The notes below the pieces were generated by a model. That model was not told where the DNA came from. It worked only from the letters and a program-made list of their open reading frames with translations, and searched no databases. 64,000 nucleotides of DNA from Octopus vulgaris (Eukaryota), in the NCBI GenBank assembly GCA_951406725.2, contig OX597818.1, positions 32,116,001 to 32,180,000 of the forward strand, read 5' to 3'. Shown one piece after another: positions 3,224 through 35,859 of this stretch (positions within the stretch are counted from its first letter, which is position 1; the number at the start of each line of letters is the position of its first letter). The position numbers and the translations under genes are program-made.

Positions 3224-3750
3224 TTAATAAAAGGACATACTAAGTATGTCTACCTGCTGTAAATAATAGTTAAAACTTATTTAAATCGACAAAATACACT
3301 CACAATAATTACAGAAATCAACCGTCCGAAGGAAGGCAAACGGGCTATCTGGACTCACGTGGACCGGGTTGAGGCTCTTTGTCATGGTAACGCGTGCTGA
3401 GGAATGTTAGAGTATCATGCCGGTCCAGAAACCGGTCTACGTGAGTCCAAATACTTGAATGTATGCAGAAAGTTTGTCATAGCCCGTTTGCCTTCGGACG
3501 GTTTATTTCTGTAGCTATTATCAATGTATTTTGGCGATTTTAGTAAGAGTTTTGACTGTTATTTCCAGCCGGTAGACATACTTAGTATGTCCTTTGATTA
3601 ACGTCAATCCCAGCTATTAAATGCTTTTTGTGGGGCCTGCAATCGCCTACGTTATTGATTCTGTTATCGTTTTTAAATTGTTACACTAGATAATAACAGA
3701 GTCAATGGTGTATGCTCGCAAATTATTTTTTCGTGAATTATTTGCTCTGT
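3224..3750 (+). mobile_element. HHR-bearing foldback element (Penelope-like/retrozyme-like)
   Basis: Inverted arms ~3224-3370 and ~3428-3601; the + copy continues to ~3750 with similarity to 33597-33690. Confidence 0.65.
3391..3443 (+). ncRNA. minimal type-I hammerhead-like motif
   Basis: cgcgtg CTGAGGA ... GAAAC CG GTC tacgtg; stem I 6 bp with 2 G-U pairs; stem II poorly paired. Confidence 0.6.
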
Positions 3751-3757
3751 ATTGAAG

Positions 3758-3849
<92 letters not shown>

Positions 3850-32909: not shown

Positions 32910-33041
32910 ATATAAATATTATATATCTTCTAATACATGATAATATAATATTCGTGTATAATGTATAATATATAATTCACATATATGTATATTGTATGCA
33001 CTTGCATATATGTGTTATGTTGTGGATACATACATATATAA

Positions 33042-33101
<60 letters not shown>

Positions 33102-33110
33102 AGCACCTAT

Positions 33111-33164
<54 letters not shown>

Positions 33165-33165
33165 T

Positions 33166-33571
33166 TACTAATCAGCAGCAAAAATATTCAGAATTGAATA
33201 TTTATAGAGATATTAATATTGTTATTATTATCGAAGTTAATAGAAATAGTTTATAATAACAACGATATTAATATAGGTGATTACAGACCTAAATCAGCAT
33301 TATATAGCTATAGAATTAAAATTATATTAATCAAAGGACACACTGAAGTGTCTATCCACCAGAAATAAGAGTTGAAACCCTCATTTGGACCGACCACCCA
33401 ACATTTCACTGAAAATAACAGATACAATTCTATACGGGCGAGCGAAACGAAAAAAGATCTCTCACATATTATTATAACATAAAGTTATATATTTAATGGA
33501 ACAGGTATATGTGTGGACCGGGTTTCTGATTTGACACAAATTTCTTACCTTCTTTTGCGCATCTTAACCTT
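33166..33571 (-). mobile_element. HHR-bearing unit, permutation 1
   Basis: Reverse complement of 33784-34034 followed directly by 33597-33726 sequence; decayed HHR at 33511-33562. Confidence 0.75.
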
Positions 33572-33596
33572 TAGAAACATCCTTTCAGTCCTCCAA

Positions 33597-34033
33597 CCTT
33601 TCATTAATATAATTTTTATTCTATAGCTATATAACGCTGATTTAGGCCTGCAAACACCTTTATTAATATCGTTGTTATTATGGACTATTTTTATTGACTT
33701 CGGAATATTTTTGCTGCTGATTAGTATTTTCACACCGAGGCTACCCACATTTTGGCGCTAAGATTTCAAGGTGACGGATTATGAGGTTAAGATGTGCTGA
33801 GACAGGTAAGAACTTTGTGTCAAACCAGAAACTGGTCCACATATATACCTGTTCCCTGAAATATTATAGATTTATGCTATAATGGTATGTGAGCGATCTT
33901 TTTTAAGGTTCGCTCGCCCGTATAGTGTTGTATCTGTTATTTTCAGGGTAATTTTTGGTGTAGGTTTTAGTGGTCCAAATGAGGTTTTAACTCTGATTTC
34001 TTGCGGGTAGACACTTCAGTGTGTCCTTTGATT

Positions 34034-34034
<1 letters not shown>
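33597..34034 (+). mobile_element. HHR-bearing ~428-nt monomer, permutation 2
   Basis: Begins cctttcatta and ends cctttgatta; atgtg CTGAGAC a ggt..acc a GAAAC TG GTC cacat at 33792-33842. Confidence 0.75.
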
Positions 34035-34075
<41 letters not shown>

Positions 34076-34606
34076 TATATATATATTTTCACACACACGC
34101 ACACATACACATAAAGCACACGCGCGCGATTCTATGTCTTATTTATATGTTTTTTTGTTATTCTCCGACGACTTTAGTATCCTTTTGCAGTTATGGATTT
34201 ATCCCACTATTGGCATCTTTTTTCTGGTGGAATTGTCACTTGCCAAAAATAAAAAAAAAAAAGGACAACAAAAATTCTAGAATCACCATGTGACTGTAAT
34301 ATATAACACTTATGTGAGTTTCTGCTTCATGACGTTAACAAAAAACAAAAAAAAATCATGAAGCTGGAGTAAAACTAACATAGACTTCAAATATTTATTC
34401 ATAATATTTATCTTCATAAAGACTACTGCTTCCATATGATATAGGAATAGCTTTATTGGACAAATCTTATTTATTTTGTTGTCATTTAGACGTCTTCGGC
34501 ATAAAATATTGGGTGGATTTTACCGACTCTAGTTGCATACTTCCTCATTCTTAGGCAATGCTGTTGTTTTAGAAATTATTATCGTAATTTTTACTACTAC
34601 CTACAG

Positions 34607-34815
34607 TGTGGCGAGCTGGCGAATTTGGTATCACGCCGAACGGGAAATGTTTATCGCCATATCTTTCAGCTTTTACCCGTTCTAAGTTAAAATTTTGTCG
34701 AGGTCGACTTTGCTCTTCATCCTTGCAGGCTCGATAAAATAAGTACTATCTGAGCACTAAAGCCAATGTAATTGATTTCTTCCTCCCTTCAAAATATCTA
34801 TCCTTTTGCCAAAAG
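34607..34815 (+). mobile_element. old SINE-B with a mariner inserted in its tail
   Basis: ggcgagctggc head and SINE-B domain. Confidence 0.75.
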
Positions 34816-34817
34816 TA

Positions 34818-35382
34818 TTGGGTTGTCCGGAAAGTTCGTGCCGATTTATAGTAGCTTACATTTCGACTTATTTTAGAACATGGTTGAGTCTATGAAATAG
34901 GATTTGACTACACCTCCATTTAGAGCACAGTTTAAGCTATCTTTTCGTGGAAGAATTTTTATGTTCCTATGACCTGTGTTAATTCTGTAACTCTTTAAAA
35001 TGGAAGATAAGAAAGTTCATTTTCGGCACTTGATGCTTTGGGAACCAGACAAAAATTGCTGCAGCTCAGCTGGGATGTGTTACCCCACCCTCCATATTCA
35101 CCAGATGTTGCCATTTCGGATTTCCCTTATACACGTCTCTGCAGAATAGTGTTAATGGTAAAAATATCAGTTCCTTGGATGACGTAAAAAGATACCTTGA
35201 TGAATTCTTTGCCATGAAACCACCTCAATTCTGGGAAGAGGGTATTTTCAAGTTAAAGGAAAGATGGAGACGCATTGTGCAACAAAAGGGTTCATATTTG
35301 GTTGATTAAAAATGTAATGGCAAGTACTTATTGACCTTTTTCTTTCCTTTAAAAATCGGCACGAACTTTCCGGACAGCCCAA
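34818..35382 (+). mobile_element. internally deleted mariner (565 bp)
   Basis: ~30 bp TIRs ttgggttgtccggaaagttcgtgccgattt / aaatcggcacgaactttccggacagcccaa, TA on both sides; MEDKKVHFRHLMLWE joined out of frame to WDVLPHPPYSPDVA...GIFKLKERWRRIVQQKGSY. Confidence 0.95.
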
Positions 35383-35859
35383 TAAAAAGAATTATAGCTG
35401 ATATCGATGGCAGTTTTACACTGGCTTAACGTTTTGAAATATTGCCGCTTCAAATACGTCTTTTACCAAAATAGAGCCGTTAATAGTTAGTATGAGCCAA
35501 GTAAAATATGTAAAATCCGTGTAGACGTATGCTAAATTTAATGAGGCTCATTATCATAGCACCTTAGAACGCAGATGAGAGGTGGTATTTTCCCTTAGCA
35601 GTAAGGACAAACCTGAATTTGGAGGTTTCCTTCATGCGGTCAATATGACTGTTTTTCTATTATGACTTCTCATTCCATTTTTTTGTTTTTGTTTCCCGTT
35701 CCCGTTTATTCATTTACCTAAATATTTATTTATATTTGATAATCGATTGTCTGATTCTCACCCTTCCATAAGATTTTTGTAACTTGTTCTGGCTATGTGC
35801 CCTGGTCAGACGCTCTTGTGGCAAATAAACAAAGATCATTATTACAACTTAGAGAGAGA

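Follow-up and report, generated by a model that had tools for sequence, protein, structure and literature searches.

A stretch of 869 bases in the genome of Octopus vulgaris is a single old insertion of a noncoding repeat of about 490 nt that carries a predicted hammerhead ribozyme. Its two head-to-head arms end at two fixed sites, and we consider it likely that a Penelope-like element, probably of the Neptune type, inserted them in trans with its reverse transcriptase (RT)-endonuclease. The insertion occupies positions 33166-34034 of the window, by which we mean the whole 64,000-nt stretch analyzed (GenBank assembly GCA_951406725.2, contig OX597818.1, positions 32,116,001 to 32,180,000, forward strand); the 2.8-Gb host genome is AT-rich and rich in microsatellites. 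The best reading of the family is that of a nonautonomous, Penelope-mobilized, retrozyme-type element, likely written from both cut DNA strands. Elements of this kind have already been published, and the family is an old representative with a mechanistically useful footprint. A search of mostly open-access literature listed nothing on octopus retrozymes or on tails near 160 nt.

By comparing the window with itself, we observed two diverged copies lying back to back, inverted and permuted, as a preliminary description of the sequence had claimed. Three blocks are shared by the arms: 33328-33570 with 33784-34034 (82.6% alike, E = 4e-66), 33232-33337 with 33597-33702 (89.6% alike), and 33166-33189 with 33703-33726 (100% alike). 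The orders given in that description, hammerhead (HHR)-Z-X for the minus copy and X-Y-HHR-Z for the plus copy, were borne out, with the addition that the minus arm also begins with the end of Y; positions 33571-33596 (26 nt) likewise belong to the family. The end of Z indeed runs directly into the start of X, at the internal site A of arm B (Table 1). The unit is 485 to 491 nt by landmark spacing and profile; the earlier estimate of about 428 nt was too short because the plus arm carries deletions in X and Y. The element contains no open reading frame (ORF) longer than 42 amino acids, in keeping with the earlier view that it lacks a convincing one. Across the window, no Rfam model matched at its gathering score, and tblastn with two Neptune proteins found no Neptune-type ORF. 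A loose hammerhead pattern matched the window twice against 0.72 matches expected by chance, which alone is not significant.

Table 1. Features of the insertion and its flanks (window coordinates; microsatellites assigned from the letters and family-wide flank counts).
Feature	Position	Strand	Remarks
Arm B	33166..33596	-	5'-truncated in Y; HHR-Z-X; stops at site B; profile positions 228 to 163
Arm A	33597..34034	+	X-Y-HHR-Z; stops at site A; profile positions 481 to 3
Deletions in arm A	between 33702 and 33703		42 nt of X at this point; parts of Y are missing as well
Predicted type I hammerhead, arm B	33503..33570	-	broken core (U4 and G5); cleavage position of the family lies after 33516
Predicted type I hammerhead, arm A	33784..33850	+	broken core (G8 and A9); palindrome of loop III altered; cleavage position of the family lies after 33837
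Site A	34010..34034	+	short hairpin, then fixed 3' end
Internal site A in arm B	33328..33337	-	seamless Z-to-X junction
Site B		-	where the ~160-nt tail X stops (minus arm)
Long hairpin inside tail X	33212..33274	-	about 21 bp
TA/CA microsatellite, site B end	33035..33160		likely target
TA/CA microsatellite, site A end	34037..34087		likely target

The insertion belongs to a dispersed noncoding family of at least 61 loci, spread over many contigs. We searched the genome with four DNA queries and one pattern, which gave 83, 37, 45, 40, and 8 matches (first-look candidates in the four DNA searches: 234, 36, 113, and 322). The 61 loci merge the best 30 of each DNA search with all 8 pattern loci and are thus best-scoring matches and a nonrandom sample; the family probably numbers a few hundred copies. 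The unit has the order X (about 160 to 170 nt), Y, hammerhead, Z, and then X again, and its GC content in natural copies is 31 to 37%. It closes on itself, with X-Y-HHR-Z unbroken within a piece at 29 of the 61 loci. Divergence from the column majority has a median of 10.3% (115 pieces; 7 to 11% for the window pieces), which indicates that the family is old. A contig from a sequencing run labeled as another organism spans 33324-33805, crossing the point of inversion, and differs at 17 of 483 letters; the insertion is therefore likely older than that split. Two sequencing runs that we guess to be RNA yielded 9 and 2 contigs less than 95% alike, which are uninformative on expression. Among the 61 best-match loci there was no unbroken tandem of two or more whole units, the longest unbroken arm covering 670 profile positions. 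Later insertions have interrupted three arms (L051, L143, and L144) that span two cleavage sites.

Although neither hammerhead in the window is intact, the column majority of the family gives a full type I core: C3 (52/59), U4 (54/59), G5 (53/59), A6 (58/59), G8 (49/59), A9 (58/60), G12 (60/63), A13 (56/63), A14 (62/63), A15.1 (61/63), U16.1 (60/63), and C17 (53/63). This majority equals the consensus that the preliminary description had guessed from the two window copies. The core is intact in 20 of 53 family pieces that span it, and the window locus is a fossil whose two hammerheads have both decayed since insertion. The family hammerhead is predicted to have an unpaired A after A9, a helix II base of three pairs, a palindromic four-letter top of helix III, and a helix I of five pairs. 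Within the family, covariation did not rise above shuffles (213/500), as expected because the copies decay. We also compared the family with a sister family, homologous along the whole unit (about 470 nt; 1558 first-look candidates). Here, 28 cells of the hammerhead helices had changed on both sides of a pair, a value reached by 0 of 500 shuffles; the comparison used nine rows per family and amounts to about four independent swaps; sister rows were partly chosen because their core is intact, and the structure was drawn from the same sequences. When six natural units were folded as circles, the results were uneven (z from -0.07 to -3.85), so rod-like folding is inconsistent among copies.

An unpaired base after A9 and a palindromic helix III are given in PMC4209133 (Cervera and de la Pena 2014) as marks of Penelope hammerheads, whose monomers cut poorly. 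The family hammerhead resembles those of Penelope-like elements described there in being type I, in the unpaired base after A9, and in its small palindromic helix III, which would require a dimer or a helper. It differs from them in that an A faces another A at the start of helix II, which contains an internal loop, and in that helix I seems to continue beyond an internal loop. Older Neptune families of the same genome have identical helix III letters in their 3' untranslated regions (UTRs). In two of these (L089:1854-2233 and L241:4870-5217), the 3' UTR hammerhead is readily visible only in its 3' half. Other short motifs that resemble hammerheads but have a longer helix III recur in several loci (L073, L169, and L196), one of them forming an inverted pair in L196.

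The insertion footprint of the family is defined by its 3' ends, which we mapped with a profile having the Z-X junction internal. Among 117 pieces from the 61 loci, the 3' end lay at site A in 37, at site B in 41, and elsewhere in 39, many of the last falling at later insertions or deletions. Site B is about 160 nt past site A. The 5' ends, in contrast, are scattered over the unit, with no enrichment at the cleavage site (5/117 in the 20-nt bin 300-319, where about 5 are expected). Adjacent pieces form 33 head-to-head pairs and 1 tail-to-tail pair. Both ends are at a site in 16 of the 33, and all 16 combine one A with one B (binomial P = 1.5e-5); in the remaining 17, at least one end lies elsewhere. 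The window is such an A+B pair, its minus arm ending at B and its plus arm at A. The random permutation points foreseen in the preliminary description were thus not found: 3' ends are confined to two sites and scatter is seen only in 5' ends. The permutation is nonrandom, arising where two start sites are fixed and the stops vary; in itself it demands no circle, since two fixed priming sites on a template longer than one unit suffice.

Ends at the two sites are flanked by simple repeats more often than the background. Such flanks were found for 24/37 site A ends, 29/41 site B ends, and 10/39 other ends (53/78 for the site ends pooled), against 614/6100 in the background, so that a microsatellite target bias is present. 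Because the flanks are microsatellite, target-site duplications are unreadable. At two loci (L026:2169-2330 and L027:1340-1503; coordinates of the merged loci), a further repeat end of 165 nt, common to both, adjoins the element across a TA tract.

The closest parallels to this footprint are insertions of endonuclease-positive Penelope-like elements (PMC8557442, PMC3846280, and PMC11167929). Those insertions are truncated at the 5' end, form partial tandems, include an inverted copy that is itself 5'-truncated, bear a tail at just one end, target microsatellites, and have a hammerhead close to the 3' end. All of these have counterparts here. The family differs in having no ORF and in its tail, which is about 160 nt long and structured, compared with 30 to 40 nt in those reports and 31 nt in an active 775-amino-acid Neptune of the same genome. 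Thus, of the Penelope-type footprint, 5' truncation with an inverted copy, two fixed 3' ends, and microsatellite bias are present, and a tail of 30 to 40 nt is not. Like the family, MRC1 of Chlamydomonas and similar Chlamys elements (PMC8557442) are nonautonomous and Penelope-type, with pseudo-long terminal repeats (pseudo-LTRs) and head-to-tail copies. However, they usually match an autonomous family at the 3' end, and no such match was found here among the loci compared.

A search of the genome for GIY-YIG domains revealed many Penelope-like elements, among them two young families whose ORFs of 775 and 781 amino acids are intact and encode RT and GIY-YIG domains (RVT_1 just below the Pfam cutoff). 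Both ORFs carry a cysteine linker, a feature given for Neptune in PMC8557442. The 775-amino-acid Neptune-type family (L238:1412-4420 and L218-L237) is very young and has a 3' UTR hammerhead about 530 nt after the stop codon, with a mismatch at the helix II base, and the 31-nt tail. It served as a control: all 10 head-to-head pairs among its 128 matches consist of one tail-less arm and one arm with the tail. That the one-arm-per-site rule is common to the noncoding family and an RT-coding Neptune provides genomic support for the proposed parasite-host link. The second young Neptune-type family (L159:430-5672) has an upstream ORF of 359 amino acids, the 781-amino-acid RT-endonuclease ORF, and tandem repeats in its 3' UTR; our scan found no hammerhead in its 456-bp pseudo-LTR.

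We also looked for an autonomous partner. The unit profile had no significant match in Neptune 3' UTRs or in 58 GIY-YIG loci (30 + 8 + 20), which make up a small fraction of the 6136 first-look candidates. Likeness to Neptune is limited to the loop III palindrome and about 12 AT-rich letters at site A that resemble the end of the 775-amino-acid family, a weak lead to a possible partner. The preliminary description had also named the contrary case, in which copies are always attached to a Penelope ORF; at 61 of 61 loci, no ORF with RT and GIY-YIG domains is joined to the unit. Alternatively, an autonomous Penelope-like element could exist with ORF-bearing copies that escaped sampling, the repeats being only its end-pieces (a pseudo-LTR with its tail). 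Such an architecture is known for Penelope-like elements (PMC8557442, in part), the loop III palindrome recurs in the 3' UTRs of older Neptune families, and Neptune ORF fragments lie near 3 of the 61 loci. That number is roughly what their abundance predicts, and we rejected the three fragments as part of the element: microsatellite or unrelated DNA lies between them and the unit, and each ends in its own, unrelated UTR. Near the sister family, moreover, no Neptune ORF fragment was found at any of 20 loci, and at 29 of 61 loci X leads on into Y and the hammerhead, closing the 490-nt unit. We therefore regard the end-piece explanation as improbable.

The two-site footprint suggests a mechanism by which the repeat could have been inserted in trans. 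The enzyme would nick both strands of a (TA)n tract, and each freed end would prime reverse transcription within the RNA, one at A and the other at B. Both cDNAs would halt at variable points and then be joined head to head, the template having passed through the hammerhead uncut. According to the parts of PMC11167929 available to us, purified Penelope protein cuts and extends both target strands and starts inside the RNA at two sites bounding the tail, with the hammerhead dispensable for cutting; a tail on one of the inverted repeats is described in PMC3846280 and PMC8557442 (likewise in part). Since the arms read through the hammerhead, the template would have been either a re-ligated circle, towards which we lean slightly, or an uncut multimer, which is nearly as probable.

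The two arms of an insertion are more alike than arms of different insertions. Arms of the same insertion share 154 of 4395 nonmajority letters (3.5%), compared with 12003 of 903718 (1.3%) for arms of different insertions, and their identity is 84.6% (32 pairs) rather than 80.1% (5863 pairs), although the pairs compared are not independent. This excess of shared letters indicates that both arms came from one source, which would also follow if priming occurred once, at B, and the cDNA then primed itself, copied the inverted arm by folding back, and was trimmed by the endonuclease at A. Fold-back yields an A+B pair by itself, and self-priming has been proposed for Penelope inverted junctions on the grounds of their palindromic form (PMC3846280, in part). 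Among the 16 A+B pairs, the 5' ends are within 30 nt of each other in 6, compared with 2 expected, and arm A lies wholly inside arm B in 7 (by hand), so fold-back suits some pairs. In 6 of the 16, however, including the window pair, the 5' end of arm A lies beyond that of arm B by more than 30 nt, which simple fold-back cannot produce. Inspected by hand, arm A in these pairs holds sequence that arm B is missing and is therefore not a copy of it. With the extension of both target strands by purified protein also weighing against it, we judge self-priming an unlikely general route and favor separate priming at A and B.

We also considered a satellite-like DNA repeat that, without passing through RNA, was spread and inverted when microsatellites recombined or were repaired. 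The unstable microsatellites at its ends and the unreadable target-site duplications would suit such a repeat. Against it stand the contrast between fixed 3' and scattered 5' ends, the dispersal of copies on many contigs, and RNA structure retained by compensatory change; the strict A+B rule, common to an RT-coding element, largely excludes a DNA-only route, which we regard as very improbable. What remains of the preliminary proposal, a nonautonomous circular-RNA retroelement moved by a Penelope-type RT, is the absence of an attached ORF, the hammerhead, the Z-X continuity, and the Penelope-type insertion footprint; its random permutation and 428-nt size are not supported.

Non-LTR retrozymes have been described as short tandem hammerhead repeats expressed as circles (PMC7229834, Cervera and de la Pena 2020). 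Penelope-like elements have been proposed as their movers (PMC7229834; bioRxiv 10.64898/2026.07.22.740005), and the latter study (Li, Clavereau and Pollet 2026) argues that retrozymes derive from Penelope ends; both sources were available to us in part. In its unit, the family resembles metazoan non-LTR retrozymes: a predicted type I hammerhead in a short, low-GC, noncoding sequence. The likeness extends to the single hammerhead in a protein-free unit, head-to-tail continuity, and coexistence with autonomous Penelope-like elements. The unit of about 490 nt compares with 170 to 400 nt in PMC7229834 and 51 to 972 bp in the bioRxiv study. However, the copies here are arms of 0.1 to 1.4 units in head-to-head pairs, whereas metazoan non-LTR retrozymes form arrays, and fixed 3' ends with paired arms are not described for them in the available portions of those two sources. 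The family thus bears on how animal retrozymes move and on how Penelope elements form inverted one-tailed insertions.

The tail itself appears to be structured. It is about 160 nt long in the family and about 155 to 170 nt in the sister family, and X folds better than its shuffles (median z = -2.5, 24 copies). A predicted hairpin of 21 pairs has 96% of its cells paired, with five pairs swapped between family and sister (0/500 shuffles); this test used nine copies per family and a structure predicted from the same alignment and, like the hammerhead test, compared two families, hence 4 to 5 independent swaps. A hairpin also precedes site A in the family, in the sister, and in an otherwise unrelated young family of 485-nt units; the stem letters differ among the three. 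We speculate that the tail hairpins might loop out, bringing A and B to about the spacing of the usual 30- to 40-nt Penelope tail. As a tentative extension, circular-RNA retrozymes might parasitize a dimeric Neptune enzyme by means of a structured tail of 160 nt that would take the place of the Penelope one: one hairpin would mark A, conserved hairpins in the tail would place B at the distance of a 31-nt tail, and the two active sites would each write one arm from the nicked strands. If so, start-site spacing would be governed by RNA shape rather than length, and the element would offer a short protein-free substrate for dissecting Penelope integration. These considerations point to a small RNA comprising the site A hairpin, the structured tail, and site B as a candidate substrate for purified enzyme.

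Other repeats lie in and near the window. A decayed stretch at 34815-35385 has inverted ends, by eye, and resembles the remnant of a mariner-type transposon. At 3224-3760 lies a head-to-head insertion of the sister family, its minus arm stopping at site A and its plus arm at site B, with an intact hammerhead core at 3397-3437. About 1.09 Mb beyond the window, a young array (L187:1584-4132, G000:C5) contains five and a quarter identical 485-nt units. We rejected it as a relative of the family, to which it has no homology by profile; nonetheless, it has the same letters, and a hairpin, immediately before site A.
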